The notes beneath the pieces were generated by a model. It was not told the DNA's origin and did no database searches. It worked only from the letters and a program-made list of their open reading frames with translations. The translations under genes were made by a program, and so were the position numbers. A stretch of 64,000 nucleotides of DNA from a candidate division Kazan bacterium GW2011_GWA1_50_15 (GTDB lineage: Bacteria; Patescibacteriota; Kazan-3B-28), in the NCBI GenBank assembly GCA_001029795.1, contig CP011216.1, positions 70,903 to 134,902 of the forward strand, given 5' to 3'. Positions 6,838 through 62,260 of this stretch are shown here, piece after piece. The first letter of the stretch is position 1; each line of letters starts with the position of its first letter.

Positions 6838-7263
6838 ATGGCTAAAAAGGTAAAAGCAGTTGTGAAGATCCAATGCGAGGCGGGACGTGCCAACCCGGCT
6901 CCTCCTGTTGGCACGGCTCTCGGTCCCCACGGGATCGCGATCATGGATTTCTGCAACCAGTACAACGAGCAGACCAAGAGCTTAATGGGACAGGTCATCC
7001 CGGCCGTGGTAACTATCTATGAGGATAGGACCTTTGATTTTATCTTAAAACAGGCGCCGGCCTCGGAACTGATCAAGAAGGCCATCGGTTTGGACAAGGG
7101 TTCTGGCGTGCCGAACAAACAGAAGGTGGGCAAAATTACCAAAGCCCAACTTAGAACAATCGCCGAGCAAAAGATGCCGGATTTGAACGCGAATGATGTT
7201 GAGGCGGCGATGAAGATCTTGGCGGGGACTGCGCGACAGATGGGGGTCGAAGTGACCGACTAG
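6838..7263 (+). CDS. rplK: 50S ribosomal protein L11
   Basis: [33 protein letters not shown] typical L11 N-terminus. Confidence 0.9.
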
Positions 7264-7450
7264 TTATAAACTAGGTGGTCATCCTCGAGTCGAAAGTGAA
7301 ACGTCTCGACATCGGGGATCCAGAAATTAAAAAATAGTGTTTTTGTCTGGATTCCGGATCAAGTCCGGAATGACAGATACTGATTATTTATATTCTTTGA
7401 GGTGGGAGTTCGATTAGTCTTCGGACGTCAAGACCACGCAGGAGAAGAAG

Positions 7451-8248
7451 ATGGCAGAGAAAAAGACAACTGCTAAAAAAGCAGTTAAGAAGTCGGAAGC
7501 ATTAGAGAGCAAGCCAGCCAAAGAGCGGAAACCGAAAGTGCAATTAAGTCCGCCAGCCGGCGGAGGGCACGGCAAGAAATATCTGGCCGTTTTGCCGAAG
7601 GTGGACAAAAATAAATTTTATCCGGTAGCGGAGGTGATCCAACTGGTGAAGGAGACCTCACCGGTCAAGTTCGACGCGACCGCTGAATTGCATCTGCAGA
7701 TGGGTTTGGACCCGAAAAAGTCCGAGCAGAACATCCGCGGAACCGTCACACTACCAGCCGGTACCGGCAAACAGCCGAAAATTCTAGTGCTGGCCGAAGC
7801 GACTGACACTAAAAAGGCCGAGGCGGCCGGCGCCGATTTTGTGGGTCTGGAGGATATGATCGAGAAGATCCAAAAGGGCTGGTTGGGATTTGATGTGGTC
7901 ATCGCCACGCCGGCCGTGATGCCCCAGCTAGGCAAGTTGGGCCAGACATTGGGGACCAAAGGACTGATGCCTAACCCTAAATCTGGTACCGTTACCACTG
8001 ATGTGGCTAAGGCAGTGGAGGAATTCAAAAAGGGGAAAGTCGAGTTTCGCTTGGATAAGGATGCCATTATCCATATGGGTTTCGGTAAGGTCTCGTTTGC
8101 GGCTGAAGATCTGCAGGCCAACCTCAACGCAATCCTGGGAGCTGTGCGGGCGGCCAAGCCCAGTAGTGCTAAGGGTACCTACATCAAGAAACTGTCTCTC
8201 TCGAGTACAATGGGGCCGGGAATAAAAATCGATTTGAACTCCGTTTAG
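7451..8248 (+). CDS. rplA: 50S ribosomal protein L1 (with Lys-rich N-terminal extension)
   Basis: L1 core motifs (GTVTLP, KGLMPNPK.GTVT) preceded by a ~35-aa K/A-rich extension. Confidence 0.85.
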   Translation: MAEKKTTAKKAVKKSEALESKPAKERKPKVQLSPPAGGGHGKKYLAVLPKVDKNKFYPVAEVIQLVKETSPVKFDATAELHLQMGLDPKKSEQNIRGTVTLPAGTGKQPKILVLAEATDTKKAEAAGADFVGLEDMIEKIQKGWLGFDVVIATPAVMPQLGKLGQTLGTKGLMPNPKSGTVTTDVAKAVEEFKKGKVEFRLDKDAIIHMGFGKVSFAAEDLQANLNAILGAVRAAKPSSAKGTYIKKLSLSSTMGPGIKIDLNSV

Positions 8249-8252
8249 GTTT

Positions 8253-8432
8253 TGCAACGCCTGCGCCGCGTTGCATCGGCGGCTACTTTCGTCTTGGCGA
8301 AAGTAGCCAAAGCCGTCCGCCAGTCATTCTGGCTATGAATGGAAGCAAAATTAGCTTTCTGGCTTTCGGCGAACTCGTCGTCCGTCAGCTGACGGACTTC
8401 TCAAACAACGCCTTCGCTGCACTAATTTTGCT
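8253..8432 (+). repeat. Copy 1 of oriented ~170-nt structured 3'-UTR repeat (H1 hairpin, conserved H2 hairpin CTACTTTCGTCTTGGCGAAAGTAG, CAAAGCCGT, long closed stem-loop B)
   Basis: H1 8253-8275 (TGCAACGC/GCGTTGCA), H2 8282-8307 (10 bp stem, loop TCTTGG), B closing stem 8344-8354 with 8422-8432. Homologous to copies at 11739, 25202, 38198, 49104. Confidence 0.7.
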
Positions 8433-8494
8433 AATTCAGGACGCCAGAACTCCAATGGCGGTGTCCTCGGGCGGGGATGATATAATGCAGAGTC

Positions 8495-8926
8495 ATGAGA
8501 GTTAGAATAACGCGAATCGATAAGACCTTGCCCCTGCCGATATACAAAACCGCTGGCGCGGCTGGATTTGATCTGATCACCCGTGAGGATACAGTGATCC
8601 GGCCGGGTGAGATAACACGTATCCCTTGTAACATGATCGTACAGACACCGCCTGGGTATATGCTGCTACTGACGATGCGGAGTTCAACACCGAGTAAGAA
8701 ACCGGGGTTAATTAAACCGCATAGTGTTGGGATAGTGGATTCGGACTACTGCGGGCCGGAGGATGAATTGAAGTTCCAAGTTCAGAATGTCGGTGATCAG
8801 AATATTACAGTCGAGCGGGGCGAAGCGATCGGACAGGGAATTTTTGTGAAGATCGAGCAAGTCCAGTTGTTGGAAGTTGAACAGACCGCGGCGGTGAGCC
8901 GGGGCGGATTTGGCAGTACGGGATAA
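8495..8926 (+). CDS. dut: dUTP diphosphatase (dCTP deaminase/dUTPase family)
   Basis: GFDL, GIVDSDY and GERIAQ-like motifs typical of Dut. Confidence 0.8.
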   Translation: MRVRITRIDKTLPLPIYKTAGAAGFDLITREDTVIRPGEITRIPCNMIVQTPPGYMLLLTMRSSTPSKKPGLIKPHSVGIVDSDYCGPEDELKFQVQNVGDQNITVERGEAIGQGIFVKIEQVQLLEVEQTAAVSRGGFGSTG

Positions 8927-8946
8927 CTAGCCAAAGGAGGTCGGTT

Positions 8947-29449: not shown

Positions 29450-29545
29450 TCTCGAGAGGGAAACGGGAGTGCGTTTCCCTCTCGACGTTCGTGGGCAAAG
29501 CCCGTTCCGGCGTAGCCGGAACGGGCTCACTGCTCTCCCTTCCAC
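29450..29545 (+). repeat. Family-2 structured 3'-UTR repeat, copy A (after rpsU stop)
   Basis: Hairpin TCTCGAGAGGGAAAC...GTTTCCCTCTCGA (stem base is the palindrome CTCTCGAGAG), then CGTTCGTGGGCAAAGCCCGTTCCGGCGTAGCCGGAACGGGCTCACTGCTCTC. Near-identical copy at 33008. Confidence 0.65.
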
Positions 29546-33007: not shown

Positions 33008-33103
33008 TCTCGAGAGAGGAACGGGGTGTGTTCCTCTCTCGACGTTCATGGGCAAAGCCCATTCCGGCTACGCCGGAACAAGCTCACTGCTCTCACCTCC
33101 ACC
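33008..33103 (+). repeat. Family-2 structured 3'-UTR repeat, copy B (after ftsZ stop)
   Basis: Hairpin TCGAGAGAGGAAC...GTTCCTCTCTCGA with compensatory changes vs copy A, then GGGCAAAGCCCATTCCGGCTACGCCGGAACAAGCTCACTGCTCTCAC. Confidence 0.65.
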
Positions 33104-33116
33104 TTGGAAGAGCAAA

Positions 33117-33143
33117 AGGCCGCGCCATGAGGCGGCCTTTTGG
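33117..33143 (+). terminator. Rho-independent terminator (GGCCGC gccatgag GCGGCC + TTTTGGG)
   Basis: GC stem plus T-run downstream of ftsZ and the family-2 repeat. Confidence 0.55.
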
Positions 33144-33377
33144 GTGGAGTGGGGAGCAGAGCCGCCAGGTCGAGCGAAGCGAAACTCAGCTTTTGCTGAC
33201 GGCTCGATGAGGGGAGAACACCCCCACGTTCTCCCCTCATGATGTTATGGGGATAAAAGGAGGGGATAACTAGTGTCAGAGTAGATTTGAGGGAAACACT
33301 AGATATGGGGTTAGTATTGTAGTTGCGACCACAAAATGCAGTAGTTCCTCGGTTCCTCGGCATGACAGTCAAAAAAG

Positions 33378-37981: not shown

Positions 37982-38206
37982 ATGAGAATAAAAGTAGTGG
38001 TCGTACCCCGGTCCAGCCGCAACGCCATCGAGGAACTGCCGGATGGCAGTTTTAAAGTGTGGGTACGGGCCGTTCCAGAGAAGGGGAAGGCCAATCTGGC
38101 CGTCATTGAACTGTTGGCGCTGAATTTTCGAGTGCCCAAAACCCAAATCGAACTTATTTCTGGGCATCGAGATAAACATAAAATTTTTGAGATTTTTGAA
38201 GCGTGA
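37982..38206 (+). CDS. DUF167 (YggU-like) family protein
   Basis: IKVVVVPRSSRNAIEE...KVWVRAVPEKGKANLAVIELLA matches DUF167. Confidence 0.65.
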   Translation: MRIKVVVVPRSSRNAIEELPDGSFKVWVRAVPEKGKANLAVIELLALNFRVPKTQIELISGHRDKHKIFEIFEA

Positions 38207-38364
38207 AATGACGCTTCACCCATTGCTACTTTTGTCTTGCCAAAAGTAGCCAAAAGCGTGGCCCGCTCACCAATTGCTAACCGAAAGGCAAAATCTGCTT
38301 TCTGGCTTTCGGCAAACTCGTCGCCTTGCTCCTTAGACAGTGCCTGCGCTACGCAGATTTTGCC
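38198..38364 (+). repeat. Copy 4 of ~170-nt structured 3'-UTR repeat (H1 spans the DUF167 stop codon)
   Basis: H1 38198-38217 (GAAGCGT/ACGCTTC with TGA in the loop), H2 38225-38250 (GCTACTTTTG tcttgc CAAAAGTAGC, compensatory T-A vs C-G), CAAAAGCGT, B stem 38287-38298 with 38353-38364. Confidence 0.7.
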
Positions 38365-38533
38365 ATCGGCGGACGCAATTGCCTCGAAGGGCCGGGTAAG
38401 AGCATAGCATGGTTAGCCTGAGGGATGCCGCTGGGAAGATGACCCCACGCCGAAGGGCTACGGGGGAATAATGCTGGTCAGGAGGATAAAATCGGCTATA
38501 ATGAGGGGGATATTTTTTGATATTAGACAAGAT

Positions 38534-42664: not shown

Positions 42665-42973
42665 ATGCAGTTAGCAGTTATCAAAACCGGAGGCAAACAA
42701 TACCTTGTGACCGAGGGGATGACCTTGGATATCGAAAAATTGGTCGGCGAACCAGCCAGCGAGGTAAAGTTCACTGAGGTGTTACTGGTGGTCAACGACG
42801 ATCAGCTGAAGCTCGGGACCCCCTTGGTGGACGGGGCAATGGTAATTGGTCAGATCGTTAAACAAGGACGTGATCCTAAGGTGACGGTAGCCAAGATGAA
42901 ACGGCGCAAACGTTATCGTCGCGTCGCTGGCCACAAGCAGTTTATAACTCGGGTCGAGATAATGAAGATCTAA
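42665..42973 (+). CDS. rplU: 50S ribosomal protein L21
   Basis: MQLAVIKTGGKQYLVTEG typical L21 N-terminus. Confidence 0.85.
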   Translation: MQLAVIKTGGKQYLVTEGMTLDIEKLVGEPASEVKFTEVLLVVNDDQLKLGTPLVDGAMVIGQIVKQGRDPKVTVAKMKRRKRYRRVAGHKQFITRVEIMKI

Positions 42974-42974
42974 A

Positions 42975-43000
42975 AATCCTGCCGTGCGGCAGGATTTTTG
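42975..43000. terminator. Bidirectional terminator (ATCCTGCC gtgc GGCAGGAT) between rplU and convergent lepB
   Basis: Palindrome flanked by A-run and T-run. Confidence 0.65.
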
Positions 43001-43654
43001 TTATAAGCTTTTACCGTAGGAGGGGGTGGAGATGCTGTGGAAGTCGTCGAACGGATAGATGACCACCCAGACCTTGCCGACGATCAAGTGACGCGCGACC
43101 GGTCCCCAGATGCGCGAGTCGGAGCTGTTGTGACGGTTATCACCCATAACAAAGTACTCGTCTTTGCTTAGAGTACGCCGGGTATCGGTGGGAGTATCAG
43201 CGCCGCGGAGGTAGGACTCGTCCAGGAGAGCGCCGTTGGGATTCTGTTTGTTGTATATCGTAACGCGTCCATCTCTGACCTCGACAGTTTCTCCTGGTAG
43301 TCCGATAACCCGCTTGATAAAGGAGATGGCTGTATTTTGTGGCCACTTAAAGACAACGACATCTCCTCGGTGTGGGGTGCGGAATCGGTAGGTGACTTGG
43401 TCGACAATGATGTACTCATTGTTATGGAAGTTTGGTTCCATGGAGGGACCAGAGACGTAGAACGGTTGGATGAGGAAGAAGCGGATAAGAAAAGCCACGC
43501 CCAAGACCGTACTGACGGTTTTGAAAACATCGTAAATAAAAATAACTGTGCCGACAAAAATCGTCAACCAGAGATGGCGGTGCGGTGCGCCGCGCCGTTT
43601 CGGGGAAGCGGGTTTACTGTCCCCGTCCTCGTGGGCGAACATGTCATCAACCAT
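43001..43654 (-). CDS. lepB: Signal peptidase I
   Basis: GPSMEPNF (Ser nucleophile box), GDNRHNSSDSRIWG (box E). Confidence 0.85.
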   Translation of the reverse strand: MVDDMFAHEDGDSKPASPKRRGAPHRHLWLTIFVGTVIFIYDVFKTVSTVLGVAFLIRFFLIQPFYVSGPSMEPNFHNNEYIIVDQVTYRFRTPHRGDVVVFKWPQNTAISFIKRVIGLPGETVEVRDGRVTIYNKQNPNGALLDESYLRGADTPTDTRRTLSKDEYFVMGDNRHNSSDSRIWGPVARHLIVGKVWVVIYPFDDFHSISTPSYGKSL

Positions 43655-48631: not shown

Positions 48632-49099
48632 ATGGGAGTTCAAGAATTGTATATCTCGCAGCAAGGTCTAGAAAATCTTAAGCGCGAGCTGGAGGAATTA
48701 AAACAGCAGCGGGTTGAGATCACTGAAAAGATCAAAGACGCCCGTGAGTTTGGCGACTTATCCGAAAACGCTGAGTATCAAGAAGCCAAGACTAAACAAT
48801 CGTTTATTGAAGGGCGCATCGAGGAGATCGAGGCGACCTTGAAAATGGCTAAAGTTATCGATGCAAAAAATAATGCTAACGGCGAGATCAGTGTTGGTTC
48901 GACGGTAGTGGTAGACGGGACTGGCCGCGAAGTAACTTATCAGATCGTGGGTTCTAATGAAGTGAGTCCCGAAGAGGGCAAGATCTCTAACGAATCACCA
49001 TTAGGTGTTGCGTTGATGGGTCACCGAGCCGGGGACAGAGTGATGGTGCCGATGGCGGATGGAGAGGAACGTGAGTATTTGATTGTGAAAGTTAGTTAA
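48632..49099 (+). CDS. greA: Transcription elongation factor GreA
   Basis: Coiled-coil N-terminus with DLSENAEY motif and FKBP-like C-terminus. Confidence 0.85.
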   Translation: MGVQELYISQQGLENLKRELEELKQQRVEITEKIKDAREFGDLSENAEYQEAKTKQSFIEGRIEEIEATLKMAKVIDAKNNANGEISVGSTVVVDGTGREVTYQIVGSNEVSPEEGKISNESPLGVALMGHRAGDRVMVPMADGEEREYLIVKVS

Positions 49100-49103
49100 T
49101 TTT

Positions 49104-49284
49104 TTGCAACGCTCTCAAGCCGCCATTGCATCGGCGTTTTTTTGCCGCATTTTGCTTGCCCAAAACGCGGCACCAAAAGGGCGCCTCACTCACCAATTCA
49201 GTTGCCAAAAACCAAAATCACCCTTTCTGGATTTAACCGCAAACTCGCTCCGCTCAGACATGCTCACCCAGACCGGGTGATTTT
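49104..49284 (+). repeat. Copy 5 of ~170-nt structured 3'-UTR repeat (after greA; H2 outer stem replaced by GCCGC/GCGGC)
   Basis: H1-like 49104-49130 followed by T7. H2 49144-49171 (GCCGCATTTTG cttgcc CAAAACGCGGC). B stem 49214-49223 with 49275-49284; B core nearly identical to copy 2 (CCAGACCGGGTGATTTT). Confidence 0.65.
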
Positions 49285-49447
49285 GCTACTGGCAATCTGA
49301 ATTGCTTCGATGGGTCCCATCGGGAACGGCCCTCTTCCAATGGCGGATGGAGAACGGGGGAAGTGCGGTGTGCTCGGACAGTCCCAAAACTTATCACTTT
49401 TAACTTATCACTGGTGCTCTCTCGAGAACTGATATACTAAGATAGTT

Positions 49448-59265: not shown

Positions 59266-59407
59266 GTTGCACATTTAAAGGTTGGGAGTCTCGATTTGTC
59301 GGGACTCCCGCCTCCACTCTTGGTCATCATGATTGCTTCCCCCAGGTAATCATGGTGGCCAAAAGTGGGGGAATATACTAGACACATTATTTATGGAGTA
59401 CAAGACA

Positions 59408-62260
59408 ATGGATGTTTTAAAAACGGTCGGTAGACGGATATACTTTCAGGTGCGTAGATTAAAGAAAGCCATGAGGAACTGGAAAAAGTTTGGCGTGATA
59501 ATTTTTGGCGGGTTAGTACTGGCGATGAACGTCCTGCCAGTTGCTCAAGCAACGGCCGACACACGCCTATTTGAAGTATATGTCGGCATGACGGGTCAGC
59601 ACACCGTGGCAGTCGGAACGCCAGTGGGCTTTACCGCTCAGTCTTATATTGGGGCTGACGATGCTACGACCGATACCAGTTTCAACTGGGAAGTGCGTCA
59701 GGGTACGGCTCTGGTCACCTCGCGGACTGGCGGCACTGCCAGCTACAGTTTTACTCCAACTGCGGCTGGGACGTATGCCATCACTACACGAGGGATTTAT
59801 CAACCAAACCCGATTAAGAGCGCTTGGGCTAAAACCCCAGCCACTTTAACTGTCACTGGCGGCACGACTGACATGCGTCTATTTGAGGTGTATGTTGGCT
59901 ACACCGGCCAAAACTCTATTACGGTCGGGACACCAGCTATTTTCCATGCCGAGTCTCATATTGGGGCTGACGATGCTACGACCGATACCAGTTTCAACTG
60001 GCAGGTGAAGAGGGGAACTGTCTTAGTAGCCTCAACCACTGATTCTGGCAAGGATTATACTTTCACTCCAACTACAGCCGGAACCTATACGATCACGACT
60101 CGCGGTATCTATCGTCCGAATACCACTAAGAGCGCTTGGGCCAAGACCCCGGCGACTCTGACGGCAACTTCAACTACTCCGCCGGAACAGACTCTTGCTA
60201 TTACCATTACCCCCGCCGAGGAGCAGCACACGGTAGTGGGTACGCAATTGCGTGTGCCCTACCAAGCGCGTCCGACCCTGAACGGCCAACCGCTCACGGG
60301 CGGGCTGGTACAGTGGTATGTTAATGGCGCGCCGCGCGGGAACGGTATTAATTTTCCTTACGACGCTTCGATGGTGGCTGGCACTTACGCGGTACGCGCG
60401 GTGTTGAGCTATGACACCCTGCCGGATGCGCAAAGCAACGTGGCTTACGTGTATGTGGCGGAGAAGCCGGAGGCGGACAAGTTTACTACTTTCTATGTTT
60501 ATCCGGACAATAGAACGTTAATTCTTACTCCGGGGGCTGACCAGGAAGATTTCCACTATGTCGCCCAGTTGTCTAATGGTGACAATATTACTCCTGAAGA
60601 GTTGACTTGGCCGGATGTTGGCTTTGGTCAGTTCACGCCTATTTTAAATGGCCGGCACTTTACAGCCACACAACTAGGCAGTGAGACAATTACGATTACG
60701 GCCAAATATCAGGGTGAAACGCTGTTCTATCGGATTCGTATTACAGTGTTACCCGCGGAGACTGGGAACCCGGTCTTGACTCGGGTGACGATCGAACCGC
60801 CGGTTGCTGGTCCGCTGTCAGCGGGTGGAGCGGGGGCTGACTACACCGCGCGGGCTTACGCCGTCACAGCCAACGGCGAGGTGGAGGTTAGCAGCCAGGT
60901 TAATTTCCTGTGGGAGATCGATCCGGTAGCCGTGCGGTATATCGGTACACTCCAAGCTCTGCCGGGGCAGACTCAAGTAGCTCACTTTACTCCCTACGCT
61001 GGAGTGAATGGCAATTTCTATGACGCCATTCACGTCGTAGCCTACTTCGGCAGTCCAGTGCAGATCCGGGACGCTCGGGCCAGCGTATTGATCAATGATG
61101 TGATCATCACGCAAGACCATCTGACTAATCTGACGGTAGCACCGGACCGCTCGGTGATCAGCACTAATGATTCGACGCCGATCCGGGCGCAAGCTTACTC
61201 TAACGGTACGCCGCTGGGCGGCGCAAGTTACAGTTGGCAGATAATCAGCGGAACCGCCACTTTGAGTTCACTGACTGGCCAGGTGGTAACGCTTTATTCG
61301 AACATTTGGACCGGTAATGTTGTCATCCAAGTAACGGCCAATTATAACGCTGATCCATCGATCAGTCGGACGACTACGGTGTTTGTTCAAGGCGCAGTAC
61401 CGCCGATCAATACTATTAATCTGGTGGTTGAGCCGTTGAACCCGACGGTGGTAACGAATAATACTCAGTTATTTACCGCTCGAGTTTACGACAGCAACGG
61501 TGCTAACATTACTAACTTGGTTGATTACGTGAGTTGGTTCAATCAGAACCCGACGGCCGGGACTATCGTTAGCCAGTCTCGCGACAATATGATCTGGCGG
61601 GCAGACAGCGTGCTGGGAACTTTCCCAAGCGCCATCCGGGTGGAGACTCGTTACGGCGGGATGGCTGATACCGAGTACATCACTCCGACAGTGATAATTA
61701 GCGGTCCGACCCCGTTTTACTTCATTAGTCCGTATTTCTACGGTGTGATCGAGGACGGCAGTACGCCGAATGAGGGCGACATCATTATCTACACCATCAC
61801 CCTCACTAATAATCAGCCGAATATGGTGTCGGGTGTGCAGCTGACCACAGACGTGCCAGCCTACACAACGTTCATCTCCGCGACTTCGGCTGTTGACCAT
61901 CCGCGGATCTCTGGCCGGACGATAACCTGGGACGCAGGTACGCTCTATAGTGGCGGGTCACAGACCCTGACCGTGCGGGTGCGCATCAACGAGGGTTTGC
62001 CCAAGAAAGGCATTAGCATCACTGGGTACGCTCATGTGCGAGCCGATCAGCTCCCGCAAGGGTTTAATATCACTTCCAACACGATCGTGGTAGGGAGCGG
62101 AAGCGGTACGCCGGTGACACCAACTGAAGAGCCACTGGCCCCGACCGGAGTTGATTGGCAGACCCTGGTAATGCTGGCACTGGCTTCGATGTTGCTGGCC
62201 GGTGTCGCCATGATAGGACTAGAGCGCCGGGCTGCTAACCGGGCATCAATACAAGAATAA
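59408..62260 (+). CDS. Large cell-surface protein with two tandem ~105-aa repeats, DUF11-like conserved repeat domain and C-terminal LAPTG sortase-type sorting signal
   Basis: Signal peptide ending AQA. Repeats LFEVYVG.TGQ...IGADDATTDTSFNW. Near the C-terminus LAPTG, then a hydrophobic helix, then ERRAANR basic tail. Confidence 0.55.
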   Translation: MDVLKTVGRRIYFQVRRLKKAMRNWKKFGVIIFGGLVLAMNVLPVAQATADTRLFEVYVGMTGQHTVAVGTPVGFTAQSYIGADDATTDTSFNWEVRQGTALVTSRTGGTASYSFTPTAAGTYAITTRGIYQPNPIKSAWAKTPATLTVTGGTTDMRLFEVYVGYTGQNSITVGTPAIFHAESHIGADDATTDTSFNWQVKRGTVLVASTTDSGKDYTFTPTTAGTYTITTRGIYRPNTTKSAWAKTPATLTATSTTPPEQTLAITITPAEEQHTVVGTQLRVPYQARPTLNGQPLTGGLVQWYVNGAPRGNGINFPYDASMVAGTYAVRAVLSYDTLPDAQSNVAYVYVAEKPEADKFTTFYVYPDNRTLILTPGADQEDFHYVAQLSNGDNITPEELTWPDVGFGQFTPILNGRHFTATQLGSETITITAKYQGETLFYRIRITVLPAETGNPVLTRVTIEPPVAGPLSAGGAGADYTARAYAVTANGEVEVSSQVNFLWEIDPVAVRYIGTLQALPGQTQVAHFTPYAGVNGNFYDAIHVVAYFGSPVQIRDARASVLINDVIITQDHLTNLTVAPDRSVISTNDSTPIRAQAYSNGTPLGGASYSWQIISGTATLSSLTGQVVTLYSNIWTGNVVIQVTANYNADPSISRTTTVFVQGAVPPINTINLVVEPLNPTVVTNNTQLFTARVYDSNGANITNLVDYVSWFNQNPTAGTIVSQSRDNMIWRADSVLGTFPSAIRVETRYGGMADTEYITPTVIISGPTPFYFISPYFYGVIEDGSTPNEGDIIIYTITLTNNQPNMVSGVQLTTDVPAYTTFISATSAVDHPRISGRTITWDAGTLYSGGSQTLTVRVRINEGLPKKGISITGYAHVRADQLPQGFNITSNTIVVGSGSGTPVTPTEEPLAPTGVDWQTLVMLALASMLLAGVAMIGLERRAANRASIQE
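59561..60180 (+). repeat. Tandem ~310-bp intragenic duplication, including a 43-nt perfect repeat (TATTGGGGCTGACGATGCTACGACCGATACCAGTTTCAACTGG)
   Basis: Two consecutive ~105-aa protein repeats. Identical 43-mer at 59648 and 59958. Confidence 0.7.

Follow-up and report, generated by a model that had tools for sequence, protein, structure and literature searches.

A structured gene-end repeat of a Kazan bacterium with relatives in several bacterial phyla

REP, BIME and REPIN elements are dispersed, non-coding, chromosomal hairpin repeats located at the 3' ends of genes and between convergent genes. REPs occur singly or as tandem or inverted pairs, turn over between relatives, and are rare on plasmids and phages. 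The ERIC, BOX, Correia and Bacillus bcr1-type repeats are intergenic sequences of 100-200 nt with predicted RNA folds and reported compensatory changes, and some of them affect mRNA stability or termination. Here we analyse a structured repeat unit present five times in a stretch of 64,000 nt (the window) from the candidate division Kazan bacterium GW2011_GWA1_50_15 (assembly GCA_001029795.1, contig CP011216.1, positions 70,903 to 134,902). We tentatively read this unit as a REP-like dispersed repeat that persists through its complement strand and would act as a gene-end boundary when transcribed convergently.

Five copies share a covarying fold and follow the adjacent gene

The motif TACTTTNNTCTTGNNNAAAGTARCCAAAG occurs four times in the window, against 0.00 occurrences expected from 100 shuffles, and copy 5 is a diverged fifth. 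A nhmmer search with a profile from 16 relatives returned exactly five matches, all on the + strand, and a covariance model (CM) of the complement strand returned exactly five full-length ones, with no other match in the window at E<=1 except to the palindromic hairpin H2. The mean identity among the five copies aligned end to end is 64%. A reading made earlier from the letters alone (the sequence-only reading) had placed five copies of a composite element of ~170 nt at these sites. Direct reading and both searches recovered the same five, and every helix that it quoted is present as written. Its composite, structured character stood as well, but not its length, since pairing past the linker extends each window copy to ~210-230 nt.

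Read on the + strand, the unit consists of a short T-run, a hairpin of free sequence (H1), a sequence-invariant hairpin (H2), the linker CCAAARCCG and a composite hairpin of ~140 nt. The loop of H1 pairs with the spacer before H2 in an H-type pseudoknot, which the sequence-only reading had missed. The composite hairpin has a conserved junction at its apex, AAACTCG-(hairpin of variable length)-CTCAAACA, and is closed by pairing of the bases after the linker with bases beyond the conserved CTCSAWKGG (in copy 1, CCGCCA 8317-8322 with TGGCGG 8456-8461). The copies and their parts are listed below. The strand given is the one that appears to fold (-), whereas the orientation used in the sequence-only reading was +.

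8246-8470, - strand: copy 1, after rplA and before dut; CM R1 153.8 bits, E 3.5e-44; nhmmer match 8249-8459; minimum free energy (MFE) fold of -91.6 kcal/mol with the family architecture
8253-8275: H1 of copy 1, TGCAACGC / GCGTTGCA, read from the sequence; the H1 helix covaries across relatives
8264-8281: pseudoknot of copy 1, loop CGCC 8264-8267 with spacer GGCG 8278-8281
8283-8306: H2 of copy 1, sequence-conserved hairpin CTACTTTCG-TCTTGG-CGAAAGTAG
8307-8316: linker of copy 1, CCAAAGCCGT; CCAAA..CG is invariant in the alignment of relatives
8317-8461: composite long hairpin of copy 1, closed by CCGCCA/TGGCGG in the MFE fold; homologous helices covary in 64 sequences
Within 8317-8461: inner stem of the long hairpin of copy 1, GCAAAATTAG/CTAATTTTGC
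8381-8398: hairpin within the apical junction of copy 1, AACTCG-(hairpin 8381-8398)-CTCAAACA
11730-11952, - strand: copy 2, after rplL and before tgt; CM 105.1 bits, E 7.8e-30
Parts of copy 2: H1 11739-11757; pseudoknot 11748-11751 with 11762-11765; H2 11767-11790; closing stem TCCCCC 11801-11806 with GGGGGA 11939-11944
25193-25401, - strand: copy 3, between the convergent secF (+) and a PD-(D/E)XK gene (-, ends 25402); CM 194 bits, E 4.6e-56
Parts of copy 3: H1 25202-25220; pseudoknot 25211-25214 with 25225-25228; H2 25230-25253
38190-38402, - strand: copy 4, after a putative short DUF167-like open reading frame (ORF) and before a NYN-domain gene; CM 107.8 bits, E 1.2e-30
Parts of copy 4: H1 38198-38217; pseudoknot 38207-38210 with 38221-38224; H2 38226-38249; closing stem GGCCC 38260-38264 with GGGCC 38389-38393
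49098-49325, - strand: copy 5, the most diverged, after greA and before a class II aminoacyl-tRNA synthetase gene; CM 21.9 bits, E 2.8e-05; nhmmer E 9.9e-21
Parts of copy 5: H1 49105-49130; H2 49144-49171, its outer stem replaced by GCCGC/GCGGC, with one A.C mismatch on +

At window 49320-49345, and downstream of the unit in three related loci (L049, L076 and L108), the tail motif CTCCAATGGCGGATGG (CTCSAWKGG) recurs one to three times at irregular spacing.

The same architecture was obtained as the individual MFE structure of 16/16 first-found copies from the candidate phyla radiation (CPR). The pseudoknot keeps a fixed register; it is paired in 13/13 sequences, and 4/4 of its pairs have changed on both sides, giving the variants GGCG/CGCC, CGCC/GGCG, GCUG/CAGC, AAUG/CAUU and GGUG/CACC. 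RNAalifold of a sub-family seed of 13 complement-sense sequences yielded 48 pairs, 29 of them with compensatory changes. A MAFFT and RNAalifold alignment over all CPR sub-families misaligned the long hairpin, and a CM was built instead from this seed and its RNAalifold structure. With it, 74 matches from 63 CPR sources, 64 of them distinct, were aligned. In the 64 distinct sequences standard pairs fill 93.3% of cells, against 70.3% in column shuffles and 33-44% with slid partners, and 41/48 pairs show changes on both sides; none of 500 shuffles reached the observed values. Because the alignment is fitted to the model these pairing figures are somewhat inflated, but the single-sequence folds and the gapless alignment of the pseudoknot are independent of it. 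These results show that the copies exist, fold and covary, and the compensatory changes reported between the window copies are thus borne out by the pseudoknot, RNAalifold and CM counts.

The five window copies all start at, or at most 6 nt after, a + strand stop codon. In copies 1 and 5 the stop (TAG 8246-8248 and TAA 49097-49099) lies 5 nt ahead of H1, and in copies 2, 3 and 4 it overlaps the first bases of H1 (TAA 11738-11740, TGA 25201-25203 and TGA ~38204-38206). Pfam names the products of four upstream genes as L1, L7/L12, SecF and GreA; the gene ahead of copy 4 is probably DUF167-like, to judge from its short ORF. That all copies point in + orientation, as the sequence-only reading had it, is true of these five but weak evidence there, because nearly all long ORFs of the window are on +; it becomes meaningful only with related loci. 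Co-orientation of the + reading with the gene that flanks H1 holds in 16/16 CPR genome copies, in 38/45 metagenome copies (two of the seven apparent exceptions are ORF-calling errors) and in 43/48 high-GC proteobacterial copies (ORFs >=150 codons, GC3 >=0.80). The orientation relative to genes, noted in the sequence-only reading, holds in ~90-95% of cases.

The gene on the tail side may lie on either strand, and the neighbours are unrelated (L1, L12, SecF, GreA, TopA, LepB, an HtrA-like protease, dUTPase, TGT and NYN). Neither a riboswitch nor a 5' leader fits such neighbours in either reading of the strand, in agreement with the earlier argument against a leader or riboswitch of one operon. 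At Trinickia and some Pseudomonas loci the units form tail-to-tail pairs between convergent genes, one unit for each gene end. Copy 3, between convergent genes, starts 10 nt past the end of the PD-(D/E)XK gene. The lepB copy of another Kazan genome, METB01, is on the minus strand, inverted relative to the five window copies, in a region syntenic with window 38.5-45.3 kb. Because of this inversion, orientation follows the gene and not replication. An orientation set by replication, on the logic of IS200/IS605, was ruled out by GC skew and by this METB01 copy. Placement and orientation of the unit therefore follow the adjacent gene.

A canonical terminator hairpin with a T-run stands between the stop codon and H1 in eight related CPR loci (L009, L026, L108, L125, L138, L140, L146 and L158), so that most sense transcripts should end there before they reach the unit. 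The window copies have no terminator between stop and H1, and at locus L119 a canonical terminator follows the unit. On the sense strand the U-rich GUUACUUUYGUCUU (GTTACTTTYGTCTT) comes after H1, or after a hairpin that the pseudoknot strands make; a terminator scan, which overall was not enriched over shuffles, flagged this combination in copies 2 and 3 only. In tandem contexts the TGnTATAAT box of the neighbouring gene lies 15-60 nt from the end of the unit, and its other strand reads CATTAT, TATTAT or TATAAT. A sigma-54 or sigma-70 promoter inside H2 was rejected, as the spacings misfit on direct reading.

Several observations were made on the flanks. Between stop codon and H1 of L125, L138, L140, L146 and L158 a hairpin GTCATTCCCGC...GCGGGAATC with a T-run recurs, at times in two or three tandem copies; this terminator-like hairpin seems to form a repeat family of its own. 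The dut promoter at window 8478-8497 has a perfect extended -10 box, TGaTATAAT, that ends ~8 nt before the ATG at 8495; this spacing suggests a leaderless dut mRNA. Similar boxes follow other copies. In METB01 (L013, L101 and L020) a motif AGATTGATACCCC with a hairpin lies 60-110 nt after the unit. Hexanucleotide microsatellites, for example (CAACAG)n, (CAAGAG)n, (CAACGG)n, (CAAAGC)n and (CAAGAT)n, stand on both flanks of the unit in Xanthomonadaceae and Pseudomonas (L006, L011, L018, L085, L023, L089 and others), and the H2 loop UCUUG is complementary to the CAAGA found in some of them. A 5S rRNA gene lies ~560 nt upstream of the unit in a Saccharibacteria contig (L076, 119-235), and in another Patescibacteria genome (L026, 403-954) the unit follows a LAGLIDADG endonuclease ORF.

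The strand that folds

Which strand folds was examined by a symmetric procedure, in which sequences were folded with G.U forbidden and the 1x1 mismatches inside helices were then typed. An A.C on the + strand corresponds to a G.U on the complement. The CPR copies gave 9 A.C on + versus 2 G.T, and 92 non-CPR copies gave 80 A.C on + versus 15 G.T. A 40-sequence Xanthomonad alignment, scored over the union of helices, had 252 A.C cells versus 45 G.U, and its freely covarying helix had 22 versus 3. The CPR alignment made with the CM, in complement sense, showed 93 G.U versus 29 A.C; it was fitted to a complement-sense model and leans to G.U, a bias that the symmetric tests do not have. Mutation bias as a source of the A.C excess was ruled out, because G>A changes do not outnumber C>T changes in unpaired columns (1.5 vs 1.9 per column). 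A wobble asymmetry between the two strands is therefore clear.

Energies and base composition lean to the same side. MFE favours the complement in 15/16 copies, with sums of -1460 kcal/mol for the complement and -1311 kcal/mol for the + strand, and the RNAalifold energies are -84.8 and -67.0 kcal/mol, respectively. The GC skew of the five window copies is -0.07 to -0.24 versus +0.16 for the + strand of the window, and in complement sense purines predominate in unpaired columns (A 28%, G 29%). Judging from these sequence properties, the strand selected to fold is the complement, antisense to the gene whose end faces H1, and the unit is probably not the 3' untranslated region (UTR) of that gene. 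The sequence-only reading had listed a 3' UTR module of the upstream + strand gene among its candidate roles, and here helix mismatches, GC skew and intervening terminators speak against it. Folding of the complement in place as single-stranded DNA (ssDNA) is unlikely, because in replication this strand is not the lagging-strand template and in transcription of the adjacent gene it is not the non-template strand. What is left is either complement-sense RNA made in place or an intermediate of complement polarity in the spread of the repeat. We infer that the complement strand is transcribed.

Distribution, turnover and competing readings

An exact-pattern scan over species-representative genomes found the 27-nt H2 plus linker pattern in at least 119 stretches of other genomes, and a metagenome scan with the CPR-type motif added 50 loci. 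Among the matches listed are Kazan, Saccharibacteria and other Patescibacteria from the CPR; Xanthomonas, Lysobacter, Pseudoxanthomonas, Luteimonas, Rhodanobacter and Stenotrophomonas from the Xanthomonadaceae; and the Pseudomonas putida and mendocina groups, Trinickia, Moraxellaceae, Cellvibrionales, Clostridia (Acutalibacteraceae) and Bacteroidetes. The repeat family thus spans several phyla, and it is multi-copy, as the sequence-only reading had it. The Xanthomonad version is homologous over the whole unit (H1, H2, linker, inner hairpin, junction and closing stem), with the junction GGCGCCC-AAACTCGCTNCGCTCARACA-GGGCGCC and the closing stem before CTTTAAGGCG. Ahead of H1 stands a T-run in CPR copies but no more than CTTTC in proteobacterial ones. 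CPR copies measure ~210-230 nt and Pseudomonas copies ~330 nt. In Acinetobacter baumannii (L170, 1500-1640) a short relative is made of H2, CCAAAACC and a single long hairpin. It is flanked by two tandem genes, and its complement sense runs in the direction of both, opposite to the usual arrangement. A Pseudomonas variant (L041, L044, L069, L079, L104 and others) carries two or three extra hairpins such as GGGCC-ATCCAT-GGCCC, whose loops read A(N)GGAU on the complement and resemble CsrA/RsmA binding hairpins.

Searches of Rfam 15 returned only four tRNAs for the window at gathering threshold, only a 13.9-bit NsiR4 noise match beside the unit for copy 1 at E<=10, only RNase P elsewhere for 14 related loci at gathering, and nothing on the unit at E<=1 to 5 for the Pseudomonas, Saccharibacteria, Clostridia, Xanthomonas and Acinetobacter versions. 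The sequence-only reading, which had not recognised a described RNA family, was right in this respect. Literature, exact-sequence (DNA and RNA spellings, both strands) and keyword searches gave no relevant match, and the family was not found in E. coli or in 2.9 million viral contigs. INPHARED phages gave weak or partial matches only. Plasmids gave no match with the Pseudomonas unit as query; a short query matched A. baumannii records of 3.6-4.1 Mb and, weakly over 33-41 nt, Parabacteroides and Diaphorobacter records. A phage or plasmid cargo was rejected on these grounds. The A. baumannii records filed as plasmids in PLSDB (NZ_CP064203.1, NZ_CP104448.1 and NZ_CP077849.1) match H2 plus linker at two to four places; at 3.6-4.1 Mb they appear to be chromosomes.

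The copies turn over at orthologous sites, with canonical terminators standing in for them. The lepB site is filled in METB01, and the window has a canonical bidirectional terminator there (42973-43001); the rplL-tgt site holds copy 2 in the window and a canonical terminator in L009. Further filled and empty orthologous pairs are L140/L133 and L156/L138. The rplA-dut site is filled in both the window and L009, by different sub-families. Copies at non-orthologous sites can be closely similar: copy 3 and the METB01 lepB copy are 90% identical, and copy 5 and the Kazan copy L119 are 94% identical over 126 nt, whereas flanking genes in those genomes are only 70-81% identical. In Pseudomonas, near-identical high-copy units stand at contig ends, where they break assemblies. 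Tandem and inverted pairs also occur in the family. Between orthologous Xanthomonas copies identity is 94-97%, a level close to that of the gene upstream and of the non-element spacer next to them. One Pseudoxanthomonas copy (L091, 3709-3743) breaks off immediately behind the linker, where unrelated sequence begins; an insertion into the unit is the probable cause.

The reading we favour, although tentatively and short of calling it probable, is that of non-autonomous REP/BIME-like repeats that persist and spread through a single-stranded form of the complement, RNA most likely and ssDNA less likely. The units lie where transcription units end, either directly at a stop codon or a little beyond the terminator of the gene itself. 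Complement RNA could come from read-through of a convergent neighbour or from divergent firing of the quasi-palindromic -10 box of the downstream gene. The compact pseudoknotted 3' module and the long hairpin may then keep antisense transcription out of the upstream gene by stopping, processing or capping it. Both this boundary function and the means of spread are what we infer.

A number of points weigh against it. No partner enzyme, RAYT included, was identified, no genome-wide protein search having been made. No terminal inverted repeat (TIR) or target site duplication (TSD) is definable, as the whole intergenic region is remodelled in each of the five orthologous pairs examined; insertion boundaries and target duplications are unreadable because the whole spacer differs in each pair. 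In-place selection is neither shown nor excluded, because the Xanthomonas copies are no better conserved than the adjacent spacer. True exceptions to the orientation exist: one locus seen three times (L125, L152 and L138), L168 and one Acinetobacter copy. No intrinsic terminator follows the complement-sense 3' end, where the complement of H1 is followed by an A-run in CPR copies except copy 3, and the 49 upstream flanks that were aligned show no promoter at a constant distance from the complement-sense 5' end. From CPR to Xanthomonas the 27 nt of H2 plus linker are nearly identical, which is atypical of REPs, as these co-evolve with transposases particular to a lineage; the lean of the CM alignment to G.U belongs to the same account.

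A selfish mobile element with no role in place, moving through a complement-polarity intermediate of ssDNA (with an HUH-type enzyme) or RNA (with a reverse transcriptase), would home past terminators and stop codons and keep its fold only for recognition of that intermediate. It would account for presence and absence at orthologous sites, sub-families shared at non-orthologous sites with identity above that of flanking genes, two sub-families at the rplA site, the near-identical high-copy Pseudomonas units at contig ends, the tandem or inverted pairs, the many CPR copies right after a terminator hairpin and T-run, and the spacer-like conservation in Xanthomonas. We nonetheless hold it somewhat unlikely. 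Neither a TIR nor a TSD nor a clean empty site is seen in the orthologous pairs examined, a partner gene did not turn up (with no genome-wide protein search made), and the family is absent from phages and essentially from plasmids, the usual vehicles of mobile DNA. Copies in one genome are old, at 64% mean identity, yet all have the full fold, whereas dead copies should decay. The orientation also misfits IS200/IS605-type logic, for it is the leading-strand template that folds, and the direction of the unit goes with the gene and not with the replication fork. Target-primed reverse transcription on terminator T-runs fitted the CPR copies, and was set aside since proteobacterial copies have only CTTTC.

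The unit might instead represent a new class, which we regard as unlikely, in one of two forms. It may be an antisense boundary RNA, present from CPR to Gammaproteobacteria, whose H2 recruits a universal host factor and which stops or caps transcription running backwards into the gene. Or it may be a non-autonomous terminator-homing element with a complement RNA or ssDNA intermediate, bacterial SINE-like or attC-like, by a mechanism that has yet to be described. Both forms would account for the retention of a 27-nt hairpin across phyla, in contrast to the free covariation of the other helices.

A candidate role given in the sequence-only reading, a sense-strand 3' UTR module that stabilises the mRNA 3' end or terminates the upstream gene, is retained because of the striking co-orientation and the alternation with terminators, though as distinctly unlikely. 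The unit abuts and is co-oriented with the upstream gene in ~90-95% of cases, takes turns with canonical terminators at orthologous gene ends, has the hairpin and U-rich stretch flagged in copies 2 and 3, and at L119 precedes a canonical terminator. Against this stand the wobble asymmetry, which in all data sets favours the other strand and has no counterpart in mutational bias, the negative GC skew with unpaired columns that are pyrimidine-rich in the sense reading, and the canonical terminator between stop and H1 in many relatives.

Genes for trans-acting non-coding RNAs on the complement strand, with a conserved scaffold that binds a widely conserved protein and lineage-specific inserts that serve, for example, in protein sponging, are highly doubtful. 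H2 and the linker are invariant across phyla while other helices vary freely, a hairpin of variable length is inserted at a fixed point between conserved junction motifs, and the complement-strand A(N)GGAU loops of Pseudomonas resemble CsrA/RsmA sites, all as such genes would predict. Yet five copies in 64 kb imply dozens per small genome, no promoter or terminator is recognisable, turnover at orthologous sites is quick, and a free-standing RNA gene is not expected to be convergent to a gene end.

Very improbable is a ssDNA recombination site of the integron attC kind, in which the bottom strand folds 3' of an ORF. Position and strand do agree with attC: the unit lies at ORF 3' ends, the complement is favoured by the wobble asymmetry, helices are kept while their sequence drifts, and a terminal hairpin is variable. 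Direct reading of the long-hairpin ends in the five copies, however, revealed no RYYYAAC/GTTRRRY core sites. attC sites form arrays next to intI, whereas here, no search for intI having been made, single copies stand 3-13 kb apart behind housekeeping genes (rplA, rplL, secF and greA), and attC has no counterpart to the pseudoknot or the invariant H2. The flanking genes are not cassettes, because gene order is conserved across occupied and empty sites. A decayed protein-coding remnant, suggested by complement peptides such as GFGYFRQDESS and FERSEF that recur as similar short strings between copies and even between phyla, can be dismissed, given frame shifts and stops in every copy on six-frame translation, no credible Pfam family (one match at E 0.0037 and 16.7 bits vs a cut-off of 30), and variation that tracks base pairing and not codons.

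If the REP-like reading is true, an uncatalogued repeat makes up ~2% of a reduced genome of ~0.7 Mb (5 x ~220 nt in 64 kb), and its relatives in the well-studied Xanthomonas, Pseudomonas and Acinetobacter had escaped cataloguing. What is unusual is the combination of strong covariation that includes a pseudoknot, a hairpin invariant across phyla, an oriented gene-end position and selection on the antisense strand. For annotation it would mean that these regions are not 3' UTRs and that the repeats break assemblies. It would also bear on how neighbouring genes are insulated in compact genomes with leaderless promoters, and on the origin and spread of REP-like DNA. Cultivable carriers include Xanthomonas translucens and X. 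hortorum, P. mosselii, P. guariconensis and P. juntendi from the P. putida group, and A. baumannii.

Other features of the window and comparison with known systems

The ribosomal protein cluster of the window is split (6838-13068) into rplK-rplA, a repeat unit, dut, two more genes and then rplJ-rplL; rplL is followed by a repeat unit and tgt, not by rpoB, and the order is identical in L009. A second, unrelated family of structured intergenic repeats is present at window 26260-26400 (inverted), 29452-29545 and 33008-33200, and at L009 7841-7925. Its core is a long hairpin, TCTCGAGAGGGAA...TTCCCTCTCGA, with GCTGAGTTTCGCTTCG nearby, and it also occurs in another Patescibacteria genome. A 312-nt tandem duplication of 73-95% identity (59640-60169) lies inside a long ORF (59333-62260).

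We found no described family that fits the unit, and each one named here fails at least one defining feature. With bacterial class C group II introns it shares a preference for sites just past a terminator hairpin and T-run, in a fixed orientation to the upstream gene; those introns, however, are sense-oriented ribozymes of 0.7-2 kb with a domain V/VI recognised by Rfam, whereas none was detected here and the fold is antisense. In the IS200/IS605-derived PATE the folded strand is the lagging-strand template, and here it is the leading-strand template (skew +0.16 on +). The ERIC, BOX, Correia and bcr1 repeats are confined to a genus or family, are essentially palindromes over their whole length with TIR-like ends, and occur in both orientations, whereas this repeat crosses phyla, has ends that are not mutual inverted repeats, and is ~90-95% oriented. 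The terminal inverted repeats of miniature inverted-repeat transposable elements (MITEs) are likewise absent: the 5' end is H1/H2, the 3' end is CTCSAWKGG with the closing strand, and the inverted repeats are internal stems.

A REP- or MITE-like lifestyle, as already proposed in the sequence-only reading, remains the closest. Like REP, BIME and REPIN elements, this repeat is a dispersed chromosomal sequence without coding function that lies at gene ends, forms clusters in places, and is both gained and lost. It differs from them in several ways. REP units measure ~20-40 nt and REPINs ~70-110 nt, whereas this composite unit measures ~220 nt. The GTAG-like tetranucleotide expected of REPs at the hairpin foot is found in none of the five copies, GTAG/GTAA being confined to the 3' arm of H2. 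Each lineage has REPs of its own, associated with a RAYT transposase, whereas the hairpin of this repeat is common to bacteria from CPR through Gammaproteobacteria. To the REP plan it adds a pseudoknot, an invariant hairpin, conserved junction motifs around an insert of variable length, and a fixed orientation to the gene.

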